Virus record (IMG/VR): IMGVR_UViG_3300032193_000091
Coordinates: 1-57,002 of that record
DNA length: 57,002 bases
Source of the DNA: a virus
Lineage: Duplodnaviria; Caudoviricetes
Strand: one strand, 5' to 3'
In this document: positions 1 to 46,110 of the stretch, piece after piece
How positions within the stretch are numbered: position 1 is the stretch's first letter
Layout: every line of letters starts with the position of its first letter
Program-made: the position numbers and the translations under genes
Notes under the pieces: generated by a model
Database searches by the model: none
What the model saw: the letters and a program-made list of their open reading frames with translations, nothing else
What the model was told of the DNA's origin: nothing

Positions 1-481
1 GTTCATAGATCTCAGCAGTGATAGCATAGAATTGAATCTTACCAAACTGGAAGAACGGTTCTTCTTTACCAACAAACTTAATTTCGTAGATATCCTGTGT
101 CAATGGGAAGTACAATAAGTCTCCCTCATTGGGTCTACTAGTAACAGTGAGATTAGGACTATGCTCTGCCACTTCTTCATCCCAGCGTCTTGTAGACACG
201 CGGAAGATAATCTCATCTGTAATTCTCAAACCAAACTTACTGATGAACTCTGCATTGTCACCAAATCCAGTAACATTTTGCAGCAGCATTTCGATCTGGA
301 ATTGTTCTTGATACTTGGAGTATCTAACTTCATCCAGTGTGCTGTCTTGCAGAACTATCCTAGGGATATAGTATACATCTGAACCAAACAGTTTGATTTG
401 CTCGTCCACCAGATCCTGTACGAGATTCTGTTCGCCACTGTGACCTTGGTAGTATGTTGGAAAGTAGGGACTTGTAGGCAT
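1..481 (-). CDS. gp14: T4-like neck protein gp14 (5' part, truncated by the window edge)
   Basis: Not in the ORF track. ATG at 481 reads MPTSPYFPTYYQGHSGEQNLVQDLVDEQIKLFGSDVYYIPR...PNEGDLLYFP...EIKFVGKEEPFFQFGK, a gp14-type sequence directly downstream of gp13. Confidence 0.9.
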   Translation of the reverse strand, partial: MPTSPYFPTYYQGHSGEQNLVQDLVDEQIKLFGSDVYYIPRIVLQDSTLDEVRYSKYQEQFQIEMLLQNVTGFGDNAEFISKFGLRITDEIIFRVSTRRWDEEVAEHSPNLTVTSRPNEGDLLYFPLTQDIYEIKFVGKEEPFFQFGKIQFYAITAEIYE

Positions 482-4410: not shown

Positions 4411-7400
4411 TTACAGAATAGTCCAACTAGAGTTATCACCGAACACAATGTTTACACCTGATACCATGGTAATTGGACCAGTTGATACGTTGGTGCTATT
4501 AGCGTCAATATTAACATCATACGCAATTTCAGTATTGTATGCTCTAATAATACCCTGTGAGTCTTGGTACTGCTTGACACCACCAATATATGTAGTACCA
4601 GTAACGTTGAAATCACCTTCAACATCGAGAGCATACCCAGGATCTTTATCGGTAGTGAATCCAATACCAACTCTAGATGCTCTGTAAATATCATCACCAT
4701 TAGGTGATTCAGTCCATCTGGATGTTACGAATGGTGCGTTATTCTGGAACAACTGACCGTTAACGTTCATGTCGCCATTGATATTGGCAACATAAAGTCT
4801 GATAGTAGAATCATCTGGATCAACACCTTGGAAAGCGTTGGTGTTGACTGCCATTCTATGAACGTCAACAGGAGTTGTACCTCCATTACCATCATCAACT
4901 TGTACCACATCTACGGTGAGAGCCATAGCTGGAATTGTTGGATTCCAATCAGTTCCACCTGCAGTCTGAGATGCACGAACAGTAAAGATATTATCGCCTA
5001 GGATATTGTTTCCGACTTCATAGTTTCTGAATCCAGAAGAACCTAGGAAGTACAATGGAGCACCACCGTTATCATCGGCATGTCCTAGTGTAATAGAATC
5101 TTTGATTCTTGTGTCGCCAGTAACATCTAGTTCGTATGCATCATCTGGTGTCATATTAACACCAACTTTACCGTTGCCAGTAATTGTTAGAGCATCAGAG
5201 AAGTTCTTTGTGCTGAAGCGCATTGCAACTGCAGTTGTCAGACCATTAAATAATTGATTGAAGTAAACATCACCAACGTTATTGTCATAGTGAATTTCAA
5301 ATCCTTCTGTAGTTGCGTCACCACCTTGACCTAAGAGTCTTAGTCTTGCATCGTGATCTGCACTCTGACTATAGATATCAACGATTACATCTTGTGCTTC
5401 ATCGTCAGTAACTGTTAGTTTAACTGTTGCAGGAGCAGTTGCAGCACCAATAGCAACAGAATCGTTGCTAGCATCAACGAAGAAAGTATCTGTGTTGACG
5501 GTAAAGTCAGTTCCAACTGTTGCATCTGCTAGTAGATTTGCTGTTCCACCAACACTCAAGGTTGCTGTGCCACTAATGTTGAGGTTACCAGTCATGGTAT
5601 CGCCACCCTTGAGAACGTTCAAGTTGGCAGAACCTTCGATAACTGCACCATTTGCAGTGTCAAGAGTAATAGTTCCACAAGAGAACTCTCCATCAGGACC
5701 ACGAAGAACAGCAGTCTCTGCAACATTCAGAGTTTGGAATGTGATGTTTCCTGCGTTCCAAATCTTATTACCATTGATGGAGAATCCATCAACAGTCTGT
5801 ACCTGAGCGTTTAGAGTACCAGAACCAGCAGTAGCGTTACCACCCTGTGCGACAAGAGCAACGTTGTAAGTTGCTGCAAGAGCAGAACTGTTAAAGTAAA
5901 TACCAGGAGATGATCCTGATCCATCTGTTCTACCAAGTCTTAGGTTACCTGTACCGCCATCACTTTCGAGTGTAGCAACATTAATTGTGTTACCCTCGTC
6001 AATGGTGAAGTCTTGGAAATCTTTTCTGTCAGTTGCAGAACCGATAGTTAGAGCACCTACGAAGTCACCAGTTGTAAGTCTACCAATGATAATTGTGTAG
6101 TCATTAGAGTTATCAACGGTATCGTTATTAACGATGATGTTGTCAATCTCGATTGTACCAGTACCTTGTCCCTGTGCGTTATAGAGGTTTACTGCCTCAC
6201 CAGGAACAAATGGGGAAGATGCAAGAACTAGACCAGAAATATAGATCTTATATCTTCTATCACCAGGGAAGTATCTAATTTCAATCTGATCTTGGAATGC
6301 GGTTTCATCAATAAAGTCTGGTAGTCTATTATCAGAAAGAGTTCCATAGTTAATATTGAGAGCGTTTTGATACCAAACACCTTGCTTGTTATCAAGTTTA
6401 TCTGCATCAAGTCCTGAATCAATACCATCGTTGAGTGCAGACCAGACTTTACCCCATGAACCGAATGATGTAACACCAGTTCCAGAACCACGGATATACA
6501 GGTTATCGTTATCAGTAAGTGCAAGTTGTCTTACACCACCGAATGAGGTATCGAAACTAGTACCACCTGCTCTGAAGGTAAGAACCATGTTCTTGGTTCC
6601 ACCATCATTAAGTAGGTTTGCACTGTTATTAATCGTGTTAGCAACAACACCACCAACGAAGTTGTCTGGAGTTGGGCTGGAAGTTGGGTTGTTAGTACCA
6701 GATGCCAGTCTCAAGGTATTACCAGACTGGTTAGCAATACTGATGTTGTATGTACCAGAGAGGCGATCTTCGCTCAATCTACCAGCACTAATGTTACTAG
6801 CATTGAGGTAGTAAGAACCTTGCTGACCGTCGAGAAGGTCAGCATCAAGACCAGAGTCAGCACCAACATTCAGTTCGACAGAACCATTACCCGATACACC
6901 GATGTTGAACTGAGATTTCTTGAATCTTGCAACACCAATAGTACCAAATAGGTCTGTAGAAATTGTTTGATCCGAAACTCTCTGGATGTCAACAGCAACG
7001 TTTGCATACTGTCTGTTGACTGTACTTACTTTAGCAAGTAAGATTAGACCAGATCCAGCACCAATCTCTGTTGGTGGAGTTGAAATTGTAAAGTCGCCAT
7101 CATAACCAGAACCAGAGGAAGTAATAGTAAGTTCAGTAATTGCACCACCAGCAACAACCAAGTTACACTTGAGACCGTTACCTGTACCACCAACTAGATC
7201 AATATCAAAGTATTGACCGTTTGTGAATCCTGTACCACCATTTGAAATAATTACAGAATCAACAAAGTTACCAGCGGTGAATGTTGACTCGAAGATCATT
7301 GGGGATGATCCTCTTTCAAATTCGACGATTGTTCCAGCAGGAATTGATGTTGTTACTGGATTGTTGATAGCAACAGTAGTCTCGCCGTCTACTGTTAGAA

Positions 7401-15396: not shown

Positions 15397-18300
15397 TTAT
15401 TTCTTAGTAATGTGTGAAACAATGGTTAGGTTTACAGTCTGTGTGTTTCCTACAGTAGCCCCTACTGTGATATTTAGTCTCACCACCCCAGCCGTGAGTT
15501 CGAACACTGGAGTAAATAGTGCTCCGTTGGTCTGGATGTTACCGTATTCAGTAAAGAATACATCTGCGCCATCATCTGTAACACCAAATTCAATGAACTC
15601 TTTTTCATTGTCATTTGTATTCTCTGCGATCAATACAATTTTTGCTCCTTTATTTGAAGCAGTTTCGTAAATATTGAATACTGCAGTATCAACAGTTCCT
15701 TTGGTGAGAACAGCATCTTCAGTCTTAACTCTGAGATCAGTAGTTTCAAATGTCTTCAGGTCTGCATCAAACAACTTAATGTTGGATGGAGTTCCTGTTC
15801 CAAAGGAAGTATTATAGAACAGATCACCATCATTAGACAGTGTTAGAACTGGATCTACATTAATACCACCAGAAAGACCAATCTTGAAATACTGCTTAGA
15901 TGTGTGTAAGAAAGTTGTATCTGCTGTGGTGTTGTCTAATGTTGTTGCAGCATTATCTAGAGTTAGCAGTGATGCTGTTAGTTCAAATTCATCACTAACT
16001 ACGGATCTTACAACATCAATATTTTCGAATGATAGTTGATTTTTGTTTAGAGTTAATGTTAGAATACCCTCATTGAAGAAGGTCAATGTATCTTCATCAG
16101 AACCAGCAGAAGACTCTGCTTTGATTTGAGTATCCTGGTCTACGTCTTTTACGCCACCAAGAGAACCCCAGTTAGCTCCATCGTATCCTTCAAACTGACT
16201 TGCAGATGTATTGAATCTCAAGGAACCTTGGATTGCACTACCTCTTTGGTTTACGTCACCAACAGGAACTGCAATACTAGTTGTTGCATCAATTTTAACT
16301 TTCTTGCCAGCAAGTGGTTGAATTACTACATCATTAATGTCTGTGCTGATGACATTATTTTTGAGTCTGAGATCACCACCAATAACAACAGGAATATCAC
16401 CAAATGGACCAATTCTTACTTGAGATACTTCATCGATTACAATTTCACCTACAGCAAGTTGAATCCATTTTAGAGTTGCATCACCGTTAGTAAAATCATC
16501 ACCAGACACATCAACTGGTGGGTTACCGCTGGTTCCAGTAGTACCAGATAGAACTACTTCATATACATTGTTTCTGTATCTTAAGTAGTTGCCAGTAAAT
16601 ACTGCTAGGTTTGCAACCCAGTTGCTGTAACTAACACCTACAGTGTTTGACGATTGAATCGTTTTAGCACCATCAAGAATTACATTGTCCTTTGTATTTC
16701 TAAATGCTAGAATATCATCGTTGTAATAATACAGTGTGTTATCATTAGCACCAGGAGATGCTTCTGCTTTAATGTAAGTATTGCCATCTAGGTCTCTTAC
16801 ACCACCAAGAGAAGACCATACACCAGATCCAGAAATATCACTATAACCTTCATACTGGTTTGAATCAGTATTAAATCTGATCGCTCCATTTTCTGCATAC
16901 AGAGTAGGTCTCTGACTATCAGTTCCTTTTGGAACTACAAATCCAGTTGAAGCGTCAACTTTAAGAAGTCTATCTGAGTATGGTTGAACGACTACGTTAT
17001 CATTCGACGTTGTTGAGATGATGTTATTTTTGATTTGAAGTCTATCGTTAGAATTGAATCTATCGATGACTTTGATCTCACCTTGTGACAGAATATTACC
17101 TGTAGAACCAGTAATAACTGCCTTGTCGGTAACATTAATGTTACCAGTAAAATTAGCGTTGATAGTTTGAATGCTAAGTCCATCACCAGAATCTCTTACT
17201 TGTGGAGTTTTAACATAAGTGCTACCCTCAACAAAAGGAGATGTAACTAAATTAGTTCCAGTGTAATCGGTGCTATTAATTTCTGTTGCATTAAGAATAG
17301 ATAGTGTAATCGTGCCAGTCTCTACATCAGCATAGATAGAATCTTCTGTGTTGATAGTAGCAGCAACAAATGTAGCACCAGAACCATAAGTTCTAGTGGC
17401 ACCCTGATTTACTGTAATTGCTACTTCATCACCATCGAATCCACCCATGTTTTCATGCTCTGACTCCGAACGACAGTAGTAATAGAGGGGATTTGGAGTC
17501 GATGAAGTAACATTTATAGTTACAAAATTAGAATCTCTAGTCACTCCATCTGTATATTCAACACCACGGAATTCTAGTTGTGTTTCTCCAGTTACAAGAG
17601 CGTTTTGACTAATCTCTAATGTAGTTCCATCTACAATAGAAGTAACAGTAGTGCCATTGACAACTCCTTGTCCTCCAAGCACGGTAATCACCATGCCTTC
17701 TGCAATAGAAGACGTATCATCAACGGTAACTTGATTTGATCCAGTAGTGATATTTACAATCTTTGTTACTCTACTGGGACTATATGGACCATCTGGGTAT
17801 TTGCTGAGAGCAAATTCGTGGCTTTGGTTGGTACTATCTGAAGTATCAAATACATATGAACTACCAGCATCTAAAGTGATCGATGGTTCAAATTGATTGT
17901 TGATAACAAATCTATGAGATTCTACTACCGTATCTGTAATAAAGGTAGAATTATCAGTTACTCTGGTAATTTCTTGTCCGCCATCTGTACTAAAATTAGA
18001 TCCTTCTAGTACGATATAATCGAAAGTACCTCCAGATTCTTTTACGAGAACAACTTCGAAAATATTATCACCGTCTAGAGTAAGTCTGTCTCCAACTGAG
18101 AACGTTCCTGAAGTGATTGCAGTAGTAAATGTGAGTTTTTGAATATCAACAACTCTTACCATGTATGTTGTTGGACTTACCAGATTAGTTGGATTAACTG
18201 AAAGTACATCAAACTGTTCGTATCCATTACCAGGATTGTTAATAGCAAGTCCAGTAATAGGTCCGAGATCATTTACAACATATGTAAAGTCTGTTGTTGG

Positions 18301-20196
18301 GTTTGCACCATATTCAGGTGTAAATGTCATAGTAGCAGAGCCTGGCTCATTGCTATCATCGGACATTGTTAGTGTATTTGTAGCATAATCAATCTCAGTA
18401 ATTGTAGCTCCACCAAACAAATCTGCATTACCACCAGTTTGTGTCACTGACATTCCTGGGAAAAGACCAGTAGTGTCAGTTACTTGAATTTGATCCGCAC
18501 CTTGGGATGTAGAATATTCAATAGGAGTGTTTGATTCAGATGTAGTAGCAGCGTTTGACAACGTGATAGTTGTAGCATTCACGACGGTAATAGTCGTTCC
18601 TGGATCTACGCTAGTAGATCCTTGGATTTCCATTCCATCAATAAGTTGAGCTGTGCTTGCAACTGTAGCAGTTGTACTACCTTCAGTTAGAGTTGTTTCA
18701 ACTGTAATATTACCAAATACAGTACCTTGAACTCCAGTAGTTTCGTCTGGTAGAATTAGTGTATCCCCAGGTTGATATCCAGTTCCTTGAATACTGAAAC
18801 TGAATTCACTTACAATACCAGGAATAGTGGTAACAGTAAACTCAAACCCACTGCCACCTACGTTTCCTAAGTCTGCTTGGTCGATAGATAGGACATCATT
18901 TTGTAGATATCCAATACCATTTTCGTTTGTATCTACCGATGTAACAACACCAGTGTACGTTGTTGTAGCACCCAAAGTATATTCAAATCCAGTTCCATTT
19001 GGAAGATTCAATTCTAGAACATCATTTGGGTTGTAATCTTCACCAATGTTTATAACATTGATGGTAGTTACATTACCATTTGAATCTACAGTAGCATCAC
19101 AAAGTAGTCCATTGCCATGCTCTCCTACTGTACCAGTTTGAACTGTGATAGTTGCACCCATGCCAGCATGAGCGGAGCAATCATATTTGATATCTCCAAT
19201 AGGAGCTCCTGGTTTGATGATAAGATCAATGAATCCAGTTCCATTTTGGGTTAGGAATGATCCTGGATCAAGAGCAGTATCATTTGTGTTTCTAAAGATT
19301 AAAGGATGACCGTCGTTTGAAGAATCCGAAATATTAAATCTATATGTGTTTCCAGCTGTGAGAGTTAATGCCTGTTGAGTAGTACCATCAATTTGATAAA
19401 CATTTGCTGGAGGTGGACTACCAGGATTTGAAACAGTAGTTACTACAAAAGTTTGCTGTGGGGAGTTGAAGAATGCTACTCCATTATTAATTCCTTCAGA
19501 GTATCCGCTACCAGCATTAGTGATAGATCCATTATAATTAACTTCACCAGTTACAGTAACCGTAGCCGTTTCTCCGCTACCACTACTAGAAATATTTGTG
19601 AAAGGAACGTTAGTGTATGTTCCTGGATAATATCCGCTACCACCGTCAGTAATAGCACCATCAACACCCTTTACAGTGAAAGAGCAGACTGCTCCAGTGC
19701 CACTACCACCCTCTAGATACTGGTCGTTATAAGTACCAAAGTCATAACCAGAACCTTCAGATGTGATATTTCCATTATACTCACTGACAGTAATATTTGC
19801 AGTTAAGTTATTACCAATACCACCAGTAATTGGAATATTGCTATAATTTCCTGGGTCATAGTTAAGACCAGGACTTGTAATAACAAGTTCCCCAACAACG
19901 TTCTTTTGGGTGATGATATCTTTAAATGAAACAAACGCTTCTGGTGAAAGATTAGTAAGTTTCTTGCCTGCAGCAACAAATCCTAAAACGCTATTATCTA
20001 CTCTATAAAATCCTAGTTGATTATCCGAAGTAAACGACAGAGCTGGATTGTCAACTGATCCATCACCAAGTTTTAGGATACCTGTTTGTAGGTCACTACC
20101 ACCTGCGTTGATACTAAAGATCTGGTCTGAGATTTCATTAATCTTTACCCTCTGCTGCTCGAAGGTATCAGTTCTAGCGACGTTGATTGCTGGCAT
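15397..20196 (-). CDS. tail fibre / baseplate-associated structural protein (1599 aa) with two cupredoxin-like domains
   Basis: N-terminal TDTFEQQRVKIN fibre-type motif; GSGY repeats; H...CSAHAGM and H...CRSESEHENM motifs; duplicated RFNT...EGY...WxSLGGV.D.D module. Confidence 0.85.
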   Translation of the reverse strand: MPAINVARTDTFEQQRVKINEISDQIFSINAGGSDLQTGILKLGDGSVDNPALSFTSDNQLGFYRVDNSVLGFVAAGKKLTNLSPEAFVSFKDIITQKNVVGELVITSPGLNYDPGNYSNIPITGGIGNNLTANITVSEYNGNITSEGSGYDFGTYNDQYLEGGSGTGAVCSFTVKGVDGAITDGGSGYYPGTYTNVPFTNISSSGSGETATVTVTGEVNYNGSITNAGSGYSEGINNGVAFFNSPQQTFVVTTVSNPGSPPPANVYQIDGTTQQALTLTAGNTYRFNISDSSNDGHPLIFRNTNDTALDPGSFLTQNGTGFIDLIIKPGAPIGDIKYDCSAHAGMGATITVQTGTVGEHGNGLLCDATVDSNGNVTTINVINIGEDYNPNDVLELNLPNGTGFEYTLGATTTYTGVVTSVDTNENGIGYLQNDVLSIDQADLGNVGGSGFEFTVTTIPGIVSEFSFSIQGTGYQPGDTLILPDETTGVQGTVFGNITVETTLTEGSTTATVASTAQLIDGMEIQGSTSVDPGTTITVVNATTITLSNAATTSESNTPIEYSTSQGADQIQVTDTTGLFPGMSVTQTGGNADLFGGATITEIDYATNTLTMSDDSNEPGSATMTFTPEYGANPTTDFTYVVNDLGPITGLAINNPGNGYEQFDVLSVNPTNLVSPTTYMVRVVDIQKLTFTTAITSGTFSVGDRLTLDGDNIFEVVLVKESGGTFDYIVLEGSNFSTDGGQEITRVTDNSTFITDTVVESHRFVINNQFEPSITLDAGSSYVFDTSDSTNQSHEFALSKYPDGPYSPSRVTKIVNITTGSNQVTVDDTSSIAEGMVITVLGGQGVVNGTTVTSIVDGTTLEISQNALVTGETQLEFRGVEYTDGVTRDSNFVTINVTSSTPNPLYYYCRSESEHENMGGFDGDEVAITVNQGATRTYGSGATFVAATINTEDSIYADVETGTITLSILNATEINSTDYTGTNLVTSPFVEGSTYVKTPQVRDSGDGLSIQTINANFTGNINVTDKAVITGSTGNILSQGEIKVIDRFNSNDRLQIKNNIISTTSNDNVVVQPYSDRLLKVDASTGFVVPKGTDSQRPTLYAENGAIRFNTDSNQYEGYSDISGSGVWSSLGGVRDLDGNTYIKAEASPGANDNTLYYYNDDILAFRNTKDNVILDGAKTIQSSNTVGVSYSNWVANLAVFTGNYLRYRNNVYEVVLSGTTGTSGNPPVDVSGDDFTNGDATLKWIQLAVGEIVIDEVSQVRIGPFGDIPVVIGGDLRLKNNVISTDINDVVIQPLAGKKVKIDATTSIAVPVGDVNQRGSAIQGSLRFNTSASQFEGYDGANWGSLGGVKDVDQDTQIKAESSAGSDEDTLTFFNEGILTLTLNKNQLSFENIDVVRSVVSDEFELTASLLTLDNAATTLDNTTADTTFLHTSKQYFKIGLSGGINVDPVLTLSNDGDLFYNTSFGTGTPSNIKLFDADLKTFETTDLRVKTEDAVLTKGTVDTAVFNIYETASNKGAKIVLIAENTNDNEKEFIEFGVTDDGADVFFTEYGNIQTNGALFTPVFELTAGVVRLNITVGATVGNTQTVNLTIVSHITKK

Positions 20197-30569: not shown

Positions 30570-30594
30570 TATTTATATTTATACGATTATTTAG
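30570..30594 (-). promoter_or_regulatory. tandem T4 late promoters (two overlapping TATAAATA plus one CTAAATA)
   Basis: Perfect gp55 consensus at 30570-30577 and 30576-30583; CTAAATA at 30588-30594; upstream of gp8. Confidence 0.75.
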
Positions 30595-33500
30595 TCAACC
30601 TCAATATTAATCATTTCATCACCTGCGGAGATGGTTGTTGGTCCACTGTAGACAGTACATCCATCGAAGGTTGTTCCAGTCTTGCTCGTATATTGGATAA
30701 TGGATCCTCCGCTTGTAAAGAGGTAACCAGAATCCAGGAAGTATTTAGTAGGTTCAGCACCTGGGTCTCCGCTGTTATCAACTGCAATTGTTCCGCTGAT
30801 GAGACCAGTCTGTGAAGTAATTGCAATTGCATTCTGAATAGATGGATTAGCGAGATTGAAGTAGTCACCGTTGATTGTGTAACTGGAGTTTGGACGATCT
30901 TCGAAGTCCGCAAGAGTCATTTGTGGGAACAATGCGGAGAATCTTTCGATAGAAACTCCAGATGCATTCGCGGAACCATCGTCATATCCAACATAATTCC
31001 AGTTTCTTAGGGTAGGTCCAGCATTACCTGTGGTATAATTACCTAGGTAATCTCCAGAACCACTAGAACCAAATAGTTGGTTGATAACATCAATTAGATC
31101 TCCGTCTCTCTGTAGGACATCATGATCGTCAGTGATATCTACAGAACCGCCATCTCTGGTTGGAACTGGGTCGCTGAGGAAGATCGATTCGACGAATCCA
31201 TCAACAACACCAGTTCCAGGATGGATTCTGAGTAGTTCTGTTGGACCGTTGTGTACGACTTCATGCTGAATGCTAATATGATGTAACTCTTCAACATGAT
31301 TGACTGTTGTTCTGACAACAGAGTCAGCGAAGATTCCAGACTCTTGTGGGCGGGTTGTGATTGCGTCTGCTTCGATAGAAGACGCGGAAACAGAAGAGAT
31401 TGTTGGAGCAAGACTGGAGCGAATCTGCTTATGGGAGACTTTCCAATCTGCCAATCTAACTGCAGACTTCTTGATATCGACTTTGATTTCAATGTTGTCG
31501 CGGGTGAGAGATTCGAACCTTGCTTCGGAGTTGATTGCACCCGCACCAGCAGCACCACCAGACTCAGTAACAATATTTGCCTGTACCGTAGCAAGAACGG
31601 TAGGTCTAACCTGAGACTTGATGATAGTCTTGGCAATCTTCCAGTCAACAATCTGTACGGCATCTTTCTTGATGTCCGCCTTGACTTCAGTTGCACCAAC
31701 ACTGAGGGAGTTGAAGGAAGCGATAGAATCCTTAGGAGCAATGCTAAGAGCATCACTGACAATAGAGATCTGTGAAGTAGATGTAACAGTAGGTGCGACC
31801 TGTGCCTTGACGATTGTCTGTGTAACCTTCCAATCAACCAGATTGATATCCGCTTTCTGAATCTCAAGTCTGTCTGGTTGCTTGTAGTAATACATTTCAC
31901 CAAACGCTGCCTCAGATGCCTGAGGAGCGATGCTGAGAGCCTCACTAATGATATCAACTCTATTGGTAGACGTAATAGAAGGTCTGAGAGTTGCCTTGAC
32001 GATTGTCTGCTCGACTCTCCAATCATATAGATTGATATCTGCCTTCTGAATCTCAAGTCTATCAGGTTGTGTATAATGTGTGAGACTATCAATAGAGACG
32101 AATGTCTCAGAAGGACGTGTTGTGATTGCCTCAGTCCTAGTGAGGAATGTTGTATTGGTGGAGACAATAGAAGGTCTAACTTGCGCCTTAACGATTGTTT
32201 GAGTGACCTTCCAGTCAACAATCTGAATTGCTTCCTTCTTAATATCTCTCTTGACAAGAGTTTCATTCCAAGCAAGAGATTCAATAGCAGAGAACGACTC
32301 TTTAGGAGCAATACTGATTGCTTCACTAATGATACTAATTTGTGAAGTAGAAGATACAGTAGGTCTGACAGTTGCCTTAGCGTAGATCTGGGTGATCTTA
32401 ACGTCGGGAACAACTGCTTCCTTCTTAATATCTTGCTCGATAAGAGTCTCTTTCCATGCAAGACTATCGAGTTTCTCAAACGAAGCGTATGGTTTGACAG
32501 TGACAGATTCAGAGAATACGTTGAGTAGAGTAACCTCTGTTGTGATTGCCTTATGAGCGGCAGCTGTGACAACTGTCTGAGTTACTACAGGAGCAGGGAA
32601 GAAGATGTCCTGTCTCTGCAGTTCACCGCGAATGATTGTTCTGTCTGCCTGTAGAGAAGAGAATAGTCCGATGACTTTTCTAGCACCAATATCAGTCTTA
32701 CGCTGAGTCTTAGCAGTGACATAAGATAGAGAGTCAATTGCTTGGACTGATTGAATCTGAGCGGTGATAACTCTTTCATTGAGAGTTGCTTTCTGCTCGA
32801 CACTAACTGGTGCTGGTTCAAACCACTTAGCAAATTCGTTATCTTCGTTGAACTTAACTTCAGAATCAATTTCCTTGACTCTGACAGATGCAACAGACTG
32901 AATAGCAGCAACACCACCAGAAACAACTTCAACTTTCTTAGGAATCTGCTTGAGGAATGTTCCTGCCAACCATGGTTTGGGTGTAGTGCCATCTACGCCT
33001 CTCTGTAGACTTAAGAATCTATCAGTGAGTTTACGGTAGTATCTGACGACCTCATCACCAATCATTAGGTAACCGTTCGTCTCAAACTTGCTAGTATCAG
33101 CAATGTATGCAACAGTATCTGTTGCGGTCATGTCTAGATCTAGGTAAGCACCAGTCTCATAGTAGTTGAAGTTTCCTAGAGAATCGTTGAAGATTCTCTT
33201 CTGTGACTGTGTGGTAAGTTTTCTTGCTGTTTGAGTGATAGAAACAGACTTGACGAAAGGAGTTCTGGTAGAAGCAATAGAAACATATTCGTTCTGACCC
33301 AAGAACATATCAACCAGATATGTCTGAACCTTCTTATTCTTAGTATCAGTAAACTTAGTGAGAGGTTGTACTACCCTAGCATCCAATCCTTCCTTGAAGT
33401 TACCGTCTTCTTCTACCTGAATGATTGCTGTAAGTGCCTTGAAGATTGCTCTTGGGGAATCTGCAATAATAGCAGAAGAAGTAAATGCCAGTGGAACTGG

Positions 33501-36500
33501 TAGACTTGCAATAGAAATTTCGGACGTAATAGTCCTGAGATCTGCATCTAATTTTGGTTGAATACCAATGGTAACTAGAGATACAGCAATGTCTCTTTCG
33601 ACTAAAATGTCGTATCCTCTTGCAACTACTGTCTTAGGAGCAGAGGTATATCCACTACCAGGATTGATTAAATCAACACTGAGGATGTGACCGCCAAGAG
33701 TTAGAACCTCTGCCTGTGCGCCACCACCATTGCCATCTTCAGGAATAAACTGAATGATTGGTGGTGTATAGTATTGATATGCTGTAGGTTGTGTGTTAGG
33801 ATTATAGTTACGCTGGTTCCACTCTAGTCTTTCAATTCTACCAGTGAGAACTTTGTTTCCATCTTCGTCCTCTACCGTCTCCATAATAGGAACAACACTT
33901 AGACCTGTTCCCTCGGTAGATCCGTTGTATGCTTCAACACCAACAATACCAAAGATGGAGTTATTAGATGGAATAGAATTGCTGTAATCCTTAGAGGTTA
34001 CAATGCTAGGAAGTGCAGAGATCTTCCTGTAAGCAGACTCACCATCAACTTTAATGGTATCACCACTGTTTAGTGGTAAGAAAGTCTTTCTGTAAGATCT
34101 ACCTAGTTTGGTAGCATTCCACTTGCCATTTCTATCTGCAAGACGAATTCTTCCTGTCTCGTCTGTAGTGATAGTTCTGTCAATTTGATTGACAACAATT
34201 TCTGTGGTAATTGAAGCATCAGCAATAGATGCTAGTAGTAGTCTATATCTTCCTGTAAATAATTGATTTGTTACAAGTTCGTGATATTGCGAAACAACAA
34301 ATCTTGCTTTAATAGTTACAATATCGCCATCTTCGCTGAAGATATATGGATCAATAATATCTCCTATAGGAGCATCATAAGCTGAACCATCGGATCTAGA
34401 TCCAATCGCTCTATATCCTGCATATCTCTTGTCTTGCATCCAAGAACTATATGATACATTATCATCATTCCTAGCAAGTTTATTAATTGCCTCGGTTGCA
34501 AAAGTTGTTGATTTATCGAGAGTGAATGTAATGTCACCTTGAATATAATAAGTGTTTGGTGAATAGTCGTAGATATTAAGGATCTGACCGACATCTCTAC
34601 CATAAAGCAGTCTCATGTCAACATCATTTTGTTCCGTGATTGGAACATTAAAGTAAATGTTAGGACCAGAAATGGTGTAACTATAACCTTCTCTCTGTAG
34701 GACACCATCGACAAAGACAAACAAGAACTCTTTCTCGTCGATCTTCTGGACTGAGCGATCCTCCATATCCAAGATTAGGAATGGACCAGATCTTACACCA
34801 TCTACTAAGTTGTAATCAATTGTAAGTCTCTTGTAATTACCAACGCCAAGACCTACAACTCTTTCAACTGCAGTTGGTTCGCCAATACTCTTGGCACCAA
34901 AATCTTGATCCCAGATAGGAGCAACATCAAATACAATCTTGTTAGGAATTACAGTTCTGTCAATATAATATGCATCGCCACCTGGGTAAGTTGCGTTATA
35001 CTTGGGTTGCTGTAATACGGCATTGATAGTGATGAAGAAGTCCTCATCTTCCTCAGAGTTAACTTCTGTGCCATCTTCCCAATAGAGTTCGAACTCTTTG
35101 GTTTCTCCGTCAACGTAATCAGGAAGAGACCTTGAAACTGATTCTTCATTGAGAATATCAGTAACATTAGCAAAGAGAGAATCTACTGAAGAAATGACAT
35201 CAGCACACTCACTATCTGGAAGCAGAGGATCTTCAATGATGTTATAATTTGTGTATACTCTCAGTGAAGTCCAGTTACCTTCACTGTTTAGATTTTGTGG
35301 TGTCGCATCAACATATCCAGTTCCGAAAGCAAGGATGTCCTTGACAATTTGAATGTAAGAACCCAGTGCTGACGCTACATTAGCACATGCTGGGACGAGA
35401 GAATCAATAGCAACGTCTGGATCTATAACAGGAGCAATGTTGGTATAAGTTCCTGCACCTAGACTGTTTCTCATTGCTAGTGTCATCTTCTCGACTAGCA
35501 AATCCCATGCAGCAATGGCCGCGGCAGTCTCTTCAACACTTCTATTAATATGTGTTAAAGTTTCTCCATAAGGATATCCTGCATTCGTATAATATAGTCT
35601 TCCAAATTCTACAACTTGCTCTGTACCACCAAACTTAAGATGATAGACAATTGCATCAATAAGATATCCTAGATCTCTAGCACATTTTTCGACGGTTGTC
35701 TGGAGAGTGTAGTTGTTGTAGATAGTAGCACTGACTTCTTCCTGCAAGTATGCTTTGTTTGCAGCAATTAGATTTGCAGCATCGTAGAAAGTACCAGTAT
35801 TAATACCACTGAAGTAGAATGTTGCAGTATCAGATCCAGAGAATGATGGAGGAACACTGAAGGTATCTCCATCATCAACAATAAATGTATCTCCTGGTTC
35901 TACCGCTGCCGTACTAGTTGGGCTAGTGGTATTACCATCAGTAGTTCCATCAAAAGTCGTAGTTCCCGCAGGAGCTCCACCTCCTCCACCAGAGTTAGAG
36001 AGTGCTGCTCTAGTCAGTGTAATTTGAATCTCACTGTCAATAGATGAGATTCTAGTGCCTTCTGGGAAAGCACCACCAGCACTGATAAGCATACCAACAG
36101 CAACGTTGTTGGTGTCTGCCATCGTCAGGATTCTAGATCCTTGAATGAAGTTGACATTGTTGACTACAATATCCCAGTTCCTGATTGCCAGTTTAGATAG
36201 ATTGGTGGCGTATCTAAAGATGTCAAGAGAAGGTACTTTATTATCAGTAATATAATCGTAACTATTATCTTCGTTAAAATATGATAGATAATCGACAGTC
36301 TTTACATTACCACCAAACCTTAGATCATGCTCGTATGCCTTGAGAATATTTCTCAGATCTGACTCATAACTAGACCCTTTGGTACTCCAGTCTAGTGTTG
36401 GATGAATCTCTTTACCGTAACCGATAGATTCTGAGATAATAAAGTCAAGGTTTCTTTCGATCTGATTAGCAGAATCCAACCACCTTCCGTTACGCTGGAA

Positions 36501-39500
36501 GATGTTTCTGATTTTTCTTAGATACCTGTCATTTGATGTGGTATCCTTGAATGCAAAATATCTGCCATAGAATTGCATTCCGTTGTATTCTGTTACATCA
36601 CCAAGTCTAGATCCAGTCAGTTTTTCACTATCACCAAGAGGTGCTTGTGCGAATACAATATCACTTCCATCAATTGTATATGCTACTCCTGGTTCTTGTA
36701 AGATTCCATCTAAGGTAATAAAGATATTGTTTACTTTTGCAGGAACAAAAGGATTATCAAAAGAATCTCTTAGTTGGAACCTAGTCGTACCAACGGTTTT
36801 GATATTTGCTCCAGTATAAGCAGTATCATTAATATCAACACCATCAAAGGAATTCTTTGCATACCATGGTTTGCCATCATCAAGAACATCATCATAGAAT
36901 CCAGGAGTTGGATTGTATACTCTAATAGTATATGCTCTGAATTCATTGAAGTTGAATTCTGAAGATGCGATGGCACCAGGACCTCTTCTGACCCTATTAT
37001 TTTCTATCTTCTGAATAGACTGAGTAACAACCCTTTGCTTAATGTCACTAGTAATAGTATTGACTTCTGGGTTCCAAAGTTGTATAATAGAAGCTTTGCC
37101 AGATCTAGGCATCTTGGCAGGCATTCTTGTATTAGCATCAGTCTCGATATCAACCTGACCGAACAGTTTAAAACCAGCAGGGTGTGTAGTTGACTTGATT
37201 AAGTCTCTCCACTGATCGATTGGAGTTCTAGACTTGACAACATAGGAATAATCCTGATAGAAGAAACTATCAGTTATTCTTTGTGATCTGTCACTAACTT
37301 TACCTCTAGCAGAATTATAGAATCCAGCATTGTCATAAGATGATGTGATATTCTCAGTTAGTGTACTAGAGTATACTGCCTTTACAGCAGCTCTATTCGT
37401 TGGATTGCTGACACTGACAATAGGGAAATTATTCCTTACAATCCCTTGCAGTTGCTTGAGTTTCAGTAAATTCGTTCCAACCTTAAATTCGCTAACTACT
37501 GCTCGGAAGACTTCTCTTCCTGCTGAATTAGTTTGTGTTACAACCTCTCCTTTTTGGAATCTACCAATAGTTTCCGTTGAAGATGGTCTCTTCAGTGCAA
37601 CAGTAAAATGAGAAGTAAAACTAGATGCTACAGTTTTATCTAAGTGGAAGGCACCACCGTTGCGAATAATCTTAATGCTCTGAGGTACACCAATAGTATT
37701 ACTATCAACATACAACTCAGTATCAGATTCAATGATCTCTACTGTTGGTTTGTATGTGTATCCTTTTCCTGCATTCTCTACAGCAATAATAGAAATCTTA
37801 CCATTAGTTACACTTGGTTTGAATCTAGCACCCTGTCCGTCTCCGTCAGTAATTACAACAACTGGATTGGTGTAATTTGATCCACCTTCAGTTACAGTTA
37901 TGCCAGTGATAACTTGTACTTTTTCGTCATACTCTACTTCAGCAGTTGCTTTGTATGTTGGGGTGATATCTACACCAGTAATTACAGGAACTTTCTTATA
38001 GTTAAGTCCAAGGTTAGTTACCTTAATAGTATTGATTTCTCCAATAGAGAAAGCACCTTTTGATGTGTATGTAATAACCCCTGATCCATCCCACAGAGGT
38101 TTGGAATCGACGTTGTATACAATTCTTGTAGGTGTTACATAAATTACAGTCTTCTCGCCTTGTAGAGGATCTGTGATGAGTTCTAGATATGCATCATCAG
38201 ACGTTACAACACCGTTCTTATCAAAATAGTAGAATGTTGTAAAATCAGTTCCTACCTTGGTATCATACTGGTTCTCGGCAATCCTAGGACCAAAACCAAA
38301 TTTAACTTCAGTAAATGCCCCTTCGTTTCCAGGAAGAGTGGTGGATGCAAGTTTCTCTTCTGTGATAAGATTGTATGCTCTACTTGGACTTAAGTCGAAA
38401 TAAGTTCCAGTTAGAGATGAGTGTGAAGTATCGAACTTGTAACGATAGAATTCCTGAATCTGAATATTTGGATTAGGAGTGAATACAATATTATCTTCAG
38501 AAATTTCAAACTTAAAGTTAGGAGATTCAATACTAGAAACAGTTACAAGTCTTGCTGGTGTGCTGCCATCAAAGAACGTGCTGCTATTCTGAACTGAAGT
38601 AGCGGTATTTCTCTCAATACCATAATTGTAAACCAGGATTACTGATTGAGTGTCTCTATCATAAGTTAATACTTTTCCTGATGTTGATAGTCCACCAACT
38701 TGGAAGTTTTCTGGGAAGTTATATTGTGCTTTATATAAAGTTACTGCTTGACCGTCGTAGTGATTCGTATCTTCAGAACCTTCAATGCCACGATTGACAG
38801 TAACCTCTGTTGGACTATCAATAGAAGTTACTTCTAGAATCTCAGATCCAATTTTAATCAGATCACCAATTGCAAGACCAGTGGTGCTCTTTAGTACAAG
38901 GTTTCTCTTTCCTTCTGCAAACCCAACGTGATCGACGTAGATAGAAAGTCTGGCAGTGCTTCTAGAAGCAGATGATCTGAAAAGGGATTCATCATCGACA
39001 GAAAGATAATCACCTTTTCTGTATCCAGTTCCTTTGTTGGTAATATCAACAGTAGCAACAGTAGCAGATACTGTTGCAACAATCTCTAAACCTGTGCTAG
39101 TTACCAATCCATCATTATCAAACACTTTAATGTAGTCTGGAAGGTCATCATTAGTGATGACAAATGATCCTCCAACGTAATTGTATCCAGGTGTTTTTAC
39201 ATAAACTTTATTACCTACAATTTCGCCATTATTAATTGTAAATGATGCAACCAACCCCTCACCGTCACCACCAGAAATAACAATATTATTGTAAACGCCA
39301 TCGCGGTATCCAGAGTGAGTTCCTTGGACCTGCAAATCAGATACAACATTGTTTTTGACAACGATAGTTGCAGTTGCACCAGTTCCAGATCCGCCAGTTA
39401 GTGCTACATCAGCGTATGTGTCAGGAGCATAATCTGCTCCACCGTTTAGAATTTGGAATGCTCCAATACCAGTGTCAGAAATTTCTGATTCGTATTCTGG

Positions 39501-42500
39501 TGTTTTGAGAACTACATTTTGATATAGTCTCTTTCTAACATAATAGTCTTTTGTCTTGATAGAATCATCTGGTCTAATATCAACTGTGATTTTATCATCA
39601 ATGCCTAGACCATGTGGATTTGAAGTCTCAATCAACGCAACACTTTGATTAACCTCAAATGGTTCTAAGTTATCACTAAGTGAAGTGAGGACTACTGGTT
39701 TAGATCCAGAAGTGTTGAAGAAGTCAGAAGACTGTAGGAAGTAATCACCACCAATTTCTTCTGCAATACCATCACCAGTTGGTTCGTTTGCATTAGAAGT
39801 AAATTCTTGTCCTACTTGGAACTGTAGTCCAGCACCAATCTGATCCCAGTTGGTGTCTCCAAGTTCTACAATTCTGTATTGTTTATTTGGTAGAATAGAA
39901 GTTGCTGTAATTCTACCCTGGTTGAGGGGAACCCAATCACCCTCTGTTACTTTAATCTCTACTGTATTCTGACTGCTGGTTCCATTTAGAATTTCACCCT
40001 TTGCTACAGCTGGGTTAACACCATCAGTTAGACTAAGGATTGCTCCTTTGGTGTATGAACTCTTCTGGTCGAGTAGAATGAAGAAGGTTTTGATGTCAGC
40101 AGAAAATGTTCCAGTATTGTCAAATGTACCAATAACATCCTTTAGAACAATTTGATTGTCGTTTCTGACTTCACCAACAATAACACCAGATGCATTGGAA
40201 GATGGTTGTCTTAGAGTATCATCTTCAAATAGATAAGCATTTTGAATAGTAGTTAACTTGACTACCTTATTTTCATAACTGTCAATATATTCTACAGGTT
40301 GTCCCTTGACAGATTCAACTAATGCTTCTGCCTGAAATCCATCTGTGCCTTTATTGTCAAAGTACAGTTTTGAATTGACAGAAAATACGTTTGCAGATCT
40401 CTCAACAGTTACATTGTCAACTGTGCCTGGTTTTACGCTACCAATCTCTGCAATGACACCTTCGCCATTTCCAGGCATACCCAATTCATTGAGTCTTCTG
40501 GATTTTTTGGGAATGTCGTTCTGGTTAATATTCGAATTGTAATTACTATCCACTGGTAGTGAATAGAAGTTCTTCCCTAAAATGTATGGGAATTGCGGTA
40601 CTTGATCGCTATTAATAGTAGTGAAATAAGCATAAACTCCCTCTGGAAAATCGGGGGTAACGCAAAATCGTCCATTGTTTTCGTCTAGTGAACCATTCTT
40701 GTGTCTATAGGTGTAATCATTTGTGAATGTACCTAAAGGATATTGATTTGTTCCAGGTCCTCCACGCCTGGTAGCGTTGAGAACGTAACTGGATGTCATA
40801 CGAGCAATACCAGTAGTGGCATCTAGTGGATCCTCAAATCCATAAGGACCATAGATTGGATTGCCGTCATAAGCAAAACCAATAATTGGTGAGTGGGTTA
40901 GACTACCAGTCTCTTGGTTGTTAGCAGTAATATTGTCATTCAGGGCATATCTGAATGCCTTTGGATTTGCAAATTGTCCGTAACCATACTCATATGAAAT
41001 ATTGAAGTTCTCAAAGACATAACCATTCTGGTCGTCCATTACAGACTTATACTTCTCATATCTGTTGAAGTTCCACTCTGTTAGTTCAACTTGTGCCTTT
41101 GCACCAGAACCAACAGGAATGATATCAACTCTCACTGTATTCTGATTGTAGAATACACCTTCGGCATTCTTTTCAAATCCAGTAATTCTTCCGTCAACAT
41201 CAACGATAGCAGTAAAGTCTGCAAAACGACCTTTACCATTATTGTCAGTGATTCTTACAGTTGGTGGAGAAGAATAGAACTCACCAGCATTATCGATAAT
41301 CAAACTGGTTACTTTATCACCAGTTACAACTGCACGAACAATAGCACCTCTACCAGAAGTTACCTCAATCGTTGGTACAACAGGAAATACCTTTTGTGAA
41401 GTTACAGTATAACTTTCAATAACTGATCCTGATAGATTTGCTTGTACCAGATCAGGAACACCATCAACTAGAACAAATGGTGGTTTAGCATATCCTGAAC
41501 CTTGCTCTACAACAGATACAGATTCTAAATTTCCATATCTGACACTTTCTTCGTCTTTGTATCCATATAGACGAACACCATTAAGCAGAAGTCCAACTTC
41601 TGATTTTGGAGTGGCATACTTCTCAGTAGTCTTAATCGCTTCTTTTCTAAGAATACGAAGAAGTTTCTGATCTTTAATTGGTTGATTATCTAGAACACCT
41701 TCTTTAAAGATTTCATATGAAGGAAAACTAGATGATGTGATATAATAGTATTGATCGTCTGCAAAAATAGCAGATACATCACTTGAAACTGAAGACAGTT
41801 GTGCCTCAAGAGTTGGTTTAGTTGGAATCTTGATGGGAAGATTATTATTCAGGATCCATCTGTAAATGTTAGATCCCGTCTGAGTGATCTTATTGTCAGC
41901 AGTCTGGAAACCAGGAATAGAGATTTGAACCTTATCGTTTGGATATGAATAAGGTTGAGCGTCAGTAATCTGGAAATCGTAGACTACACCTAGGGTTACG
42001 AGTTCTACATTAGCACCCTTGATGATAACTGGTTTGTATACAGGCGTACCTTCTTCATGAGTATAGGTAATGTCGCCTCGTCTCTCAATAGTAAATTGAG
42101 TTACATTCTTGTCATTGAAGGAGATGACTTCTTCTCCAATCAAAATCTCACCTTTTTCTTTCCATCCAATAGTAGAGAACACATTAACTCTCTTACCAAT
42201 ACCTGTTGTATTAGAAAGAGTCTTAGTGAGACTAGTTTTCGTAGAGATGGCAAATTCACCAGTTACGGTCTCTGGTGCGAGAACTAGATTGACGATTGCT
42301 TCTCCATCTGCAGTAATGTCACCAATTACATTGTCTACAGTAGCAGAGACATATCCATACTCTGCGGTCTCTTCCTGTACTACTACATTACCAATCAGAT
42401 CATTAACATCACCACTAATCACCTTTACTTTTAGAGCATAGATGTTAGTCCAGTCAGAATCGGAAGACTTAAGGGTGAAATCTGTTGGGTTGTATACCTC

Positions 42501-45605: not shown

Positions 45606-46110
45606 AGTATCTCCAGTGATTGTTTGGTCTTTCCCACCAGAAGTGAAGATCTTCCACTTCATCATTATAATACAGTGACACAAGGTCACTCTTATATTTA
45701 CTACCAATGTTTTCGCAAAGACTTAGTGTGTAGTAATTCTTCGGAACAAACTGTTCCATTACATTGGTAATCCAAGTGTAGTTCCCACCTCTGATGACAC
45801 CTGCCTCACACAAGACAAAGTTATCCCAATCTAGGACTAGATCAGCAAACTGAACCGAGAAGTTGACTTCGTAGTTAACTCTAGATTCATCTGGAAATGG
45901 TACATTGACTGCTTCAATGTGGTAACACTCCCCACCCTTTGATAAAGCATGAGACAAGTGCTGTGTGACAATTCCAGAATAGTCTGGTGACACACATAAG
46001 AAGCATGTCTTAGCAGGATCAATATCCCACTTTGCCATTTGAATTTGATACACCATCTGTTGGATGAGTGCCATCTCTTTGTCTTGTGAGATAAACAGGA
46101 GATCTTTCAT
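45598..46110 (-). CDS. phosphoribosyltransferase-fold-like protein
   Basis: FVLCEAGVIRGGNY resembles a degenerate PRPP-binding loop; C-terminal FWWE motif. Confidence 0.55.
   Translation of the reverse strand: MKDLLFISQDKEMALIQQMVYQIQMAKWDIDPAKTCFLCVSPDYSGIVTQHLSHALSKGGECYHIEAVNVPFPDESRVNYEVNFSVQFADLVLDWDNFVLCEAGVIRGGNYTWITNVMEQFVPKNYYTLSLCENIGSKYKSDLVSLYYNDEVEDLHFWWERPNNHWRYYG

Follow-up and report, generated by a model that had tools for sequence, protein, structure and literature searches.

How are two strings of short repeats and the domain between them organised in the phage protein P0001? The protein, of 1599 aa, is encoded in a 57,002-nucleotide stretch of viral DNA (Caudoviricetes), hereafter the window. 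The first-pass annotation had read four N-type and four C-type repeats as halves of nested domains, with a cupredoxin-like domain at their innermost point. We consider it probable (about 0.8) that aa ~100-690 of P0001 form a recursively nested arm tipped by the cupredoxin-fold domain, with N1-N4 leading out and C4-C1 leading back.

Repeat units of the carrier protein

P0001 matched two PHROG families, 'virion structural protein' (phrog_6005, E 0, aa 713-1599) and 'baseplate wedge subunit' (phrog_32294, 1.2e-72). Its top tblastn matches were to T4-like Synechococcus and Prochlorococcus phages at 38-44% identity. The phage is a marine, T4-like cyanophage, and P0001 a structural protein associated with its tail. 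N-type motifs started at aa 106, 144, 182 and 225 (nt 19881, 19767, 19653 and 19524), and C-type motifs at aa 374, 416, 460 and 645 (nt 19077, 18951, 18819 and 18264). The features of P0001 and the basis for each are as follows.

15397..20196, minus strand: P0001, predicted virion structural protein, 1599 aa, carrying the proposed nested arm (ORF list and translation)
19777..19890, minus strand: N1, N-half of level 1, aa 103-140 (N HMM i-E 3.3e-17; within the interface of the split-chain model)
19663..19776, minus strand: N2, aa 141-178 (N HMM i-E 9.5e-17)
19534..19662, minus strand: N3, aa 179-221 (N HMM i-E 1.4e-14)
19462..19533, minus strand: N4, shortened N-half hosting the cupredoxin, aa 222-245 (N HMM i-E 7.7e-05)
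19084..19461, minus strand: cupredoxin-fold domain, innermost guest, aa 246-371 (VIA-align fold matches and conserved candidate ligands)
18952..19083, minus strand: C4, aa 372-415 (C HMM i-E 6.5e-10; interface residues 284-325, fragment numbering, split-chain model)
18820..18951, minus strand: C3, aa 416-459 (C HMM i-E 2.2e-14)
18688..18819, minus strand: first part of C2, aa 460-503 (C HMM i-E 8.5e-12)
18301..18687, minus strand: two ~65-aa 'r' domains inside C2, aa 504-572 and 573-632 (homologue comparison, fold match)
18265..18300, minus strand: last strand of C2, displaced, aa 633-644, the strand itself at 635-641 (in P0163, where C2 is uninterrupted, it aligns with the end of C2)
18127..18264, minus strand: C1, closing level 1, aa 645-690 (C HMM i-E 1.9e-16; interface residues 555-583, fragment numbering, split-chain model)
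17482..17910, minus strand: second cupredoxin-like domain with an r domain inserted, aa about 763-905 (CUP HMM match at aa 763, r HMM match at aa 817)

The order and positions of the units in the first-pass annotation agreed with the motif starts and HMM matches, but its boundary for N4 did not hold. N4 is not a full N-half: it is shortened (aa 222-245), covering only positions 1-18 of the N HMM, and 'QQTFVVTTV' already belongs to the cupredoxin, as its first strand. C2 ends with a strand that comes after both r domains, which are therefore guests inside C2 and do not lie between C2 and C1. The translation of the second cupredoxin-like domain contained 'SHEF' and 'YYYC..SEHENM'.

The eight units were compared profile against profile, each profile consisting of 88-92 orthologous rows of A1. 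Probabilities were 61-98% for N-N pairs (n=6) and 60-98% for C-C pairs (n=6) but 0.1-13% for N-C pairs (n=16), which indicates two genuine classes, ordered NNNN..CCC..C. Pooled N and C HMMs (i-E<1e-5) gave 11 matches in the window's seven large proteins, and none in 20 shuffles or in the reversed sequences of these proteins. DSSP of the AF2 model assigned 3 + 3 strands per level to the ~80-residue N+C domain, which has no Pfam name.

Units were also found at two other places in the window, both named in the first-pass annotation.

7039..7257, minus strand: uninterrupted N+C unit in the 3478-aa protein (HMM; N at aa 2531-2568, 3.1e-09, then directly C at aa 2568-2603, 3.6e-05)
38928..39467, minus strand: two-level nest NNCC in the gp7-like 4190-aa protein, aa 1235-1399 (HMM matches)

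The uninterrupted unit was present as claimed (HMM matches at aa 2531-2603, nt 7257-7039), and so was the two-level nesting: most orthologues of the gp7-like protein have one uninterrupted N+C, and that of the window has a second N+C between the halves. Five aligned one-level orthologues lacked anything corresponding to the inner ~80 aa. In the AF2 model of this nest the outer halves were confident and the inner domain had a pLDDT of 37-62. The 4190-aa protein matched phrog_2885, phrog_708 and phrog_17744 'baseplate wedge subunit', and its flanking genes matched phrog_219 and phrog_438 with the same description. Given the gene order, with gp6-like and gp8-like neighbours, it is probably gp7 itself.

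Nesting order and depth among relatives

The order of N and C units was surveyed in 391 related proteins, 321 of which had both unit types. Nesting depth, for which the first-pass annotation had suggested such a survey, varied from 1 to 7 levels. The order was balanced, in the manner of brackets, in 241 of the 321 proteins; the other 80 were unbalanced, which we tentatively attribute to missed or truncated units. Unmatched symbols numbered 37 of 385 compared to 121.5 (minimum 87) after shuffling (500 shuffles), and 14 of 39 distinct strings were balanced compared to a mean of 2.6 (maximum 7) in 2000 shuffles. The strings took the forms NC, NNCC, NNNCCC, NNNNCCCC, seven-deep, branched NNNCNCC.. 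and (NC)x22, and an (NC)x11 protein also exists. The host domain thus also occurs uninterrupted, the gap within the innermost pair being shorter than 25 aa in 279 of 438 cases. Where the innermost pair was interrupted, the cupredoxin was the guest in 147 of 159 cases of this biased sample.

Level-specific HMMs read three-level homologues as N1N2N3 followed by C3C2C1, and two-level homologues as N1N2 followed by C2C1. The outer N was kept together with the outer C across homologues, and therefore both halves of a level are lost together, inside first. P0145, P0151 and P0163 had no N4, cupredoxin or C4, and P0183, P0188 and P0206 retained N1 N2 with C2 C1, so that the arm has two, three or four levels in related phages. 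P0115 had a full-length N4 and no cupredoxin, with nothing else missing. The r domains varied as well: P0163 had none and its C2 was uninterrupted, and the two-level homologues carried a single copy. An N4-type profile directly N-terminal of a cupredoxin was also found in the unrelated architectures P0142 and P0150. At the level of sequence statistics and comparison, these data establish that there are two unit classes, that their order follows a bracket grammar and that the innermost levels are lost first.

Pairing of the halves and shape of the arm

The AF2 monomer model of aa 91-705 had a mean pLDDT of 93.9 and a pTM of 0.72. In addition, aa 100-258 and aa 372-692 were folded as separate chains with ESMFold2, together with three controls. 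The ipSAE was 0.68, 0.70 and 0.71, compared to 0.00 for the best of the three controls, in a test that halves of one gene tend to pass; in its calibration, 58 of 80 complexes of known structure reached the mark, as did 2 of 110 mismatched pairs. The models contained 636-685 contacts, at least 84% of them shared between runs, and the partner pLDDT was at least 82. The pLDDT of the N-part was 80-81 with its partner and 33-34 without it (controls). All of the 25 least-error contacts were same-level: 12 were N2-C2, 10 were N3-C3, and 3 joined the start of N2 (aa 144-146) to aa 638-639 of the displaced C2 strand. These contacts cover levels 2 and 3 only, and the pairing of N1 with C1 and of N4 with C4 is suggested by the residues listed at the interface and by elimination. 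The r domains lay mostly away from the N/C interface.

The anti-diagonal pairing (N4-C4, N3-C3 and so on) predicted by the first-pass annotation is supported by the bracket grammar, the level-specific HMMs and the split-chain models; physical contact between the two halves of a level within P0001 was seen in the models only. Covariation (92 rows, Neff 69.5) did not favour matched pairs, N1-C2 scoring 0.223 vs 0.201 for N1-C1, and the score of N4-C4 was low (0.168).

In the architecture that we propose, each ~80-residue domain would consist of a three-strand N-half and a three-strand C-half, and guests would enter the hairpin between the halves. The chain would run outward via N1, N2, N3 and the shortened N4 into the cupredoxin-fold domain, and return via C4, C3, C2 and C1, completing the domains in reverse order, with the two r domains budding from a C2 loop during the return. 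Since the chain both enters and leaves through level 1, the arm would branch off the main body of P0001, and whole levels could therefore be gained or lost without disturbing the remaining protein. Strands running up-down-up and then down-up-down would put the insertion hairpin opposite the termini. This 3 + 3 layout suggests a rod-like arm, and in a rod the cupredoxin would be distal.

The best surviving alternative, which we regard as unlikely, is that the domains, though nested in sequence, pack on the baseplate as a compact globule, with the cupredoxin buried or lateral instead of at a distal tip. A pTM of 0.72 indicates fixed relative positions and is no proof of a rod, and the r domains bud sideways. 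However, an insertion hairpin opposite the termini would favour end-to-end stacking, and the listed least-error contacts were all within levels, with none between non-adjacent levels.

Much less probable is a domain swap, in which the N-halves would be completed by the C-halves of a neighbouring subunit to give an inter-subunit zipper in an oligomeric fibre. The fibres of many phages are trimeric, their chains intertwined; the grammar and the indel evidence are blind to pairing in cis or in trans, and the split-chain test says no more than that the two halves fit together. Against this stands the confident single-chain AF2 model described above. Furthermore, the uninterrupted N+C units with gaps below 25 aa (279/438 innermost pairs) can hardly pair in trans, and the short innermost linkers favour closure in cis.

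Slightly less credible still are two independent tandem arrays, an N string and a C string that fold separately with the cupredoxin merely between them: both classes carry a G-x-G-Y turn and resemble each other weakly (probability up to 13%), so that each could stand alone, equal-length arrays would also yield NNNNCCCC, and covariation gave no matched-pair signal, but N and C counts stay equal over depth 1 to 7, branched bracket strings exist, level-specific profiles keep the outer N with the outer C, and both the split-chain ipSAE (0.70 vs 0.00) and the low pLDDT of the unpartnered N-part (33-34) speak against them.

The tip domain and known systems

The cupredoxin-like fold assigned to the innermost point of P0001 by the first-pass annotation was upheld by VIA-align. 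Residues 154-268 of the AF2 model (aa 244-358; pLDDT >90) gave a Greek-key fold match to nitrite reductase 6tfd_A (Z 8.5, rmsd 3.0, 98 aligned), and matches over the same range at Z 5.9-7.6 included many laccases as well as rusticyanin, plastocyanin and auracyanin. When aa 245-372 were scanned against Pfam with E up to 10, no cupredoxin family came up and the one entry listed was FlgD_ig (0.089), and a profile search against the PDB gave plastocyanin at a weak E of 0.7-1.5. The r domain matched 8eci_2 (Z 9.2, 34% identity, 68 aligned).

The candidate copper ligands of the tip domain are H297, C340, H343 and M346. Their columns were at least 90% conserved in 92 rows, and likewise in 16 diverse rows. 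The set was complete in 186 of 465 cupredoxin-HMM matches (54 of 81 in the diverse set), and a further 226-243 of the 465 had a gap in at least one of the C-terminal Cys, His and Met columns. In the plastocyanin profile alignment (E 0.7, weak), C, H and M fell on the ligand motif. Judged from sequence, the His/Cys/His/Met set appears typical of blue-copper sites, its canonical placement being suggested by general knowledge of such sites and this weak alignment.

The tip domain resembles type-1 (blue) copper proteins in its fold, in an upstream His and in a C-x2-H-x2-M motif near its C-terminus, with a spacing that we take to be the same as in amicyanin. In contrast to these soluble electron carriers, it is part of a virion protein, its copper site is putative, and it has no significant Pfam cupredoxin sequence match. 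Its position on the arm is presumably distal, and the tip may be the working part, a head that binds surfaces and is either stabilised by copper or dependent on it. That the virion displays a true blue-copper site is a speculative and rather improbable proposal. If it were true, marine cyanophages would bear heads loaded with copper, and possibly redox-active, on nested arms of adjustable length; the heads would recognise the host surface or react with it, and their reach would depend on whether the arm has 2, 3 or 4 levels. Such a virion-borne metalloprotein module would be without described counterpart.

The tail sheath protein gp18 of T4 (PDB 3FO8, 3FOA) is likewise a phage tail protein formed by successive domain insertion. 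Between residues 10-191 of the gp7 nest model, 74-75 residues superposed on a contiguous gp18 domain at a weak Z of 4.2-4.4. The best match among the 50 listed was gp18 domain I (residues 99-188) to the outer N+C of the gp7 nest (Z 4.4, weak at <5; rmsd 2.8, 74 aligned, range 11..191). However, no sequence similarity was detectable between gp18 and the nested N+C domains, and the domains of gp18 are unlike one another, whereas the nests of P0001 and the gp7-like protein place one family inside itself. In the fold search with the P0001 model, the matches listed were to the cupredoxin and the r domain, with none covering the N/C domains.

A close parallel is Si3 of RpoC2, the cyanobacterial RNA polymerase beta' subunit. 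As described in Protein Sci 2026 (PMC13114784), its hybrid-motif domains are recursively inserted, six levels deep in Prochlorococcus marinus, and recursive domain insertion is defined as A1-B1-C-B2-A2. P0001 likewise has guests that are also hosts, over four levels, and in models only its separated host segments form one domain in space. The two systems share the A1-B1-C-B2-A2 recursion, a small beta domain serving as both guest and host, a depth that differs by lineage, and the occurrence of the same domain in uninterrupted tandem copies. Among the 50 matches listed for the gp7 nest model there was no RNA polymerase chain, the best Z being only 4.4. Compared with Si3 as described there, the arm of P0001 belongs to a virion protein and is built from a different, unnamed domain family, with near-equal halves of 3+3 strands and a foreign cupredoxin-fold guest innermost. 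Recursive domain nesting is already published for cyanobacterial RpoC2.

Half-domains of the arm and their gene setting

The window comes from a T4-like cyanomyovirus and covers its tail and baseplate module, in which the following features were located.

15397-20196, minus strand: gene of the 1599-aa virion structural protein, among giant structural genes
30591-43163, minus strand: gene of the 4190-aa gp7-like protein, upstream of the 1599-aa protein gene (phrog_2885, phrog_708, phrog_17744)
Upstream of the 1599-aa protein gene: gp6-like gene (phrog_219)
Upstream of the 1599-aa protein gene: gp8-like gene (phrog_438)
17482-17910, minus strand: second cupredoxin-like domain of the 1599-aa protein (aa ~763-905), after the arm, with an r domain (a ~65-aa unit that also occurs in the arm) inside it (HMM matches)

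By tblastn the 1599-aa protein matched 58 phage records, every one at less than 60% identity, and in 24 of these at least 80% of the query was covered at one place. By the first word of the organism name the 58 records were Synechococcus (36), Cyanophage (11), Prochlorococcus (10) and Pelagibacter (1). The protein had no significant match in Pfam; in PHROG it matched phrog_6005 ("virion structural protein"), and its C-terminal part matched phrog_32294 ("baseplate wedge subunit"). Its identity as a fibre was an assumption of the first-pass annotation; we can say only that the protein is structural and associated with the virion and its baseplate. The N-terminal ~90 residues were near-invariant among homologues of differing arm depth, and homologue matches started at residue 91; aa 1-100 (19897-20196, minus strand) are probably an attachment domain. 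Within aa ~1000-1599 (15397-17200, minus strand) phrog_32294 was matched in five stretches, and the long motif IRFNT..QYEGY...W.SLGGV.D.DGNTYI.AE...DN.L.FYND occurred twice. Adjoining the baseplate module, a 188-aa ORF (46107-46673, minus strand) matched phrog_81 ("2OG-Fe(II) oxygenase"), an auxiliary gene.

The arm (aa ~100-690) had been read from its motifs as four N-halves, a cupredoxin-like domain and four C-halves, at positions that proved correct to within a few bases. The eight units (N1-N4 and C1-C4) were excised from the 92-row homologue alignment and their profiles were compared pairwise. The six N-N pairs matched at 61-98% probability and the six C-C pairs at 60-98%, whereas the 16 N-C pairs reached only 0.1-13%, indicating two unit classes and no single tandem repeat. 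An initial reading as one unit in simple tandem, suggested by the G-x-G-Y turn common to N and C, was ruled out by these separate classes and by the matched counts of N and C.

Pooled N and C HMMs were built solely from the arm family of the 1599-aa protein. They detected N followed directly by C at aa 2531-2603 of the 3478-aa protein, confirming the uninterrupted unit noted there earlier, and N, N, C at aa 1235-1399 of the gp7-like protein (the gp7 nest). In seven large proteins 11 matches reached i-E 1e-5, and none did so in shuffled (20 replicates) or reversed sequences.

Depth and order of the halves among relatives

The number of levels differed among orthologous arms. P0115 and P0141 had four levels without the cupredoxin, and a full-length N4 directly abutted C4. 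By their best level-specific profiles, P0145, P0147, P0151, P0157 and P0163 read N1 N2 N3 / C3 C2 C1, and P0183, P0188 and P0206 read N1 N2 / C2 C1. The three- and two-level homologues keep the outer N with the outer C; loss of levels has therefore proceeded from the innermost outwards, each N going together with its C. Among these sequences, such inside-out loss is the evolutionary expression of the predicted anti-diagonal pairing and the strongest comparative point.

The gp7-like protein had been described as a two-level nest, and its orthologues agreed. Five aligned one-level orthologues had one uninterrupted N+C at the nest site; relative to these, the gp7-like protein of the window and P0270 carried ~80 extra residues, themselves an N+C unit, between the two halves. 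In nearly all of the first 70 gp7-region homologues scanned, a single N was followed directly by C at this site. Precomputed annotation assigned Pfam PF14240 to gp7-like homologues, and the 4190-aa protein itself matched the cupredoxin HMM at ~aa 1565 and contained an r domain at ~aa 2341.

The order of the halves was also evaluated in 391 proteins, comprising arm homologues, gp7-region homologues and the other large proteins of the window. Each was scanned with level-specific and pooled HMMs and reduced to a string of N and C. Both kinds of unit were present in 321 proteins, and 241 of these strings were balanced bracket words. With distinct strings counted once, 14 of 39 were balanced, compared with a mean of 2.6 (maximum 7) over 2000 shuffles, and 37 of 385 symbols were unmatched, compared with 121.5 (minimum 87) over 500 shuffles. 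The balanced forms included NC, NNCC, NNNCCC, NNNNCCCC, a seven-deep N7C7, (NC)x11 and (NC)x22, as well as branched words such as NNNCNCCNNCCCNNCC. Of the 80 unbalanced proteins, most had one surplus symbol, and in several of them a close relative showed the missing partner (P0126 has N at 825, P0133 none). We read the unbalanced strings as probable detection failures or truncated metagenome proteins. With this bracket grammar, domain boundaries in these proteins can be parsed from sequence alone, which is of use in annotation.

Within the gp7-region homologue set, P0286 (2528 aa) and P0320 (2522 aa) had 22 uninterrupted N+C units in tandem, together with precomputed Pfam matches PF00460, PF06429 and PF07559. 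We take these to be flagellar rod/hook families, and the N/C domain family would therefore not be confined to phages.

Predicted pairing and course of the arm

An AF2 model of aa 91-705, made with the 92-row alignment, had a mean pLDDT of 93.9 and a pTM of 0.72, a high value for some eleven small domains in one chain. The N-part (aa 100-258) and the C-part (aa 372-692) were then given as two chains to a different model, ESMFold2. The ipSAE was 0.68, 0.70 and 0.71, compared with 0.00 in the best of three controls; such tests usually succeed when both halves come from a single gene, and the outcome means that the halves fit each other and no more. When the predictor was calibrated, 58 of 80 solved complexes attained the mark, as did 2 of 110 mismatched pairs, which is only a rough guide here because our own alignment was supplied. 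There were 636-685 contacts, the runs shared at least 84% of them, and partner pLDDT was at least 82. The pLDDT of the N-part was 80-81 with the C-part but 33-34 with unrelated partners.

The run was informative chiefly through its 25 least-error pairs. Of these, 12 joined N2 to C2, 10 joined N3 to C3, three linked aa 144-146, in the first N2 strand, with aa 638-639, and none crossed levels. Along these pairs, residue numbers rising in the N-part were falling in the C-part. The anti-diagonal pairing proposed earlier is supported by the bracket grammar and the inside-out loss and, for levels 2 and 3, by the same-level placing of all 25 pairs; levels 1 and 4 appeared in the interface residue lists only, outside the 25 pairs. 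APC-corrected mutual information between N and C blocks (92 rows, Neff 69.5) showed no matched-level preference, at a depth too low to decide. The physical pairing of N with C is taken from models throughout.

For the gp7 nest, AF2 gave pLDDT of 76-95 in the outer halves and 37-62 in the inner unit, for which the alignment was shallow. After the low-confidence middle was trimmed, 74-75 residues spanning model residues 10-191 superposed on one contiguous domain of T4 gp18 (residues 99-188) with Z of 4.2-4.4, and several baseplate proteins gave Z of 3.1-3.6 over the range 1..193. These superpositions show the outer halves lying together in the model, at Z too low for naming the fold.

By DSSP, the N-half and the C-half of each level both consisted of three strands. 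In the split-chain model the last N strand paired with the first C strand (aa 171-174 with 462-467, aa 212-215 with 418-422) and the first N strand with the last C strand (aa 181-184 with 451-453). An up-down-up and then down-up-down course would put the insertion hairpin at the end opposite the termini, so nested copies should stack end to end as a rod, whose far end, away from the entry and exit of the chain, would carry the cupredoxin. We infer this rod geometry from the models. The arm would be a lateral excursion whose length changes by whole levels, as in the two-, three- and four-level homologues, leaving both arm ends in place. This suggests a growth rule for giant cyanophage tail proteins, by which a domain of 80 residues that tolerates insertion receives further copies of itself in its central hairpin.

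Two details of the arm were revised. A strand taken at first as the end of N4 was assigned to the cupredoxin as its first strand, since the cupredoxin fold match starts at aa 244, the family consensus begins with this very strand, and aa 246-258 lay outside the split-chain interface; N4 is thus a shortened N-half, aa 222-245. The same N4-type profile also precedes the cupredoxin in the otherwise different architectures of P0142 and P0150, and N4 with the cupredoxin has the look of a cassette. One reading had the two r domains (aa 504-572 and 573-632) as spacers separating C2 from C1. P0163 is without r domains, and its C2 runs directly into the strand corresponding to aa 635-641 of the 1599-aa protein; in the split-chain model that strand contacts the beginning of N2, in the way that the last C3 strand contacts the beginning of N3. 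The spacer reading was therefore rejected, and the r domains are guests of C2, inserted in one of its loops. The r region (aa 484-627, AF2 model residues 394-537) gave several phage tail protein fold matches with ~68 residues aligned over a 144-residue span, a hint of a possible insertion of one r domain into its neighbour.

The cupredoxin-fold tip and known counterparts

The innermost domain, earlier called cupredoxin-like, has the cupredoxin fold by structural match: 6tfd_A (Z 8.5, rmsd 3.0, 98 aligned), 3t9w_A (Z 7.6), rusticyanin (Z 6.3), auracyanin (Z 6.1) and plastocyanin (Z 5.9). In the 92-row family alignment the columns of the candidate ligands His297, Cys340, His343 and Met346 showed at least 90% conservation, and likewise in 16 diverse proteins having only the cupredoxin domain in common. 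Their arrangement, a His upstream of C-x2-H-x2-M, is that of type-1 copper sites. Profile alignment put the candidates on the plastocyanin ligand motif, at E 0.7. The full HCHM set was found in 186 of 465 domain-HMM matches, and in 226-243 more at least one of the three columns towards the C-terminus (Cys, His, Met) had a gap, in many cases from a guest splitting the domain. Matches from the diverse proteins P0197-P0265 had HCHM in 54 of 81 cases. There was no match to the Pfam cupredoxin families, and we call the tip a cupredoxin-fold domain with a probable copper site, outside named families. The complete blue-copper ligand set of this domain raises the question of what part copper would play in a phage particle when sea water is poor in that metal.

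Among 438 innermost N-C pairs, 279 were uninterrupted, 147 held a cupredoxin-fold domain, nine had a gap of 25-60 aa and three held at least 60 aa without assignment; since recruitment of the sample relied in part on the cupredoxin itself, these counts do not measure the frequency of other tips. The re-tipping put forward in the first-pass annotation is a proposal. The second cupredoxin-like domain (aa ~763-905) had a candidate ligand set of different spacing (SHEF ... YYYC..SEHENM). P0197 (958 aa) and P0241 (627 aa) had six to eight tandem cupredoxin-like copies without N/C units.

Neither the arm nor the uninterrupted N+C unit had any match among PDB sequences at E up to 10, and Pfam gave nothing for the arm, the N+C unit or the gp7 nest. 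ESM Atlas gave unnamed clusters only. In fold searches the best 50 matches of the arm model were all to the cupredoxin or an r domain, and the gp7 nest gave weak matches only (best Z 4.4). The N+C unit points to a domain family, widespread and unnamed, whose members range from baseplate proteins of phages to flagellar-hook-like proteins of bacteria. Among listed titles and opening lines of abstracts, no published description of the arm was found, nor any paper on a cupredoxin in cyanophage virion proteins or on domain insertion of this kind in cyanophages.

Recursive domain insertion itself has a phage example in T4 gp18, which was also the best, though weak, fold match of the gp7 nest model. 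It is also known from Prochlorococcus RpoC2, whose six-level hybrid-motif nest serves as the example of hierarchical complexity in a 2026 survey (PMC13114784). Compared with these, what is new here is another self-nesting domain family with near-equal halves, natural two-, three- and four-level alleles of one arm as read from homologous sequences, and a conserved, blue-copper-like guest.
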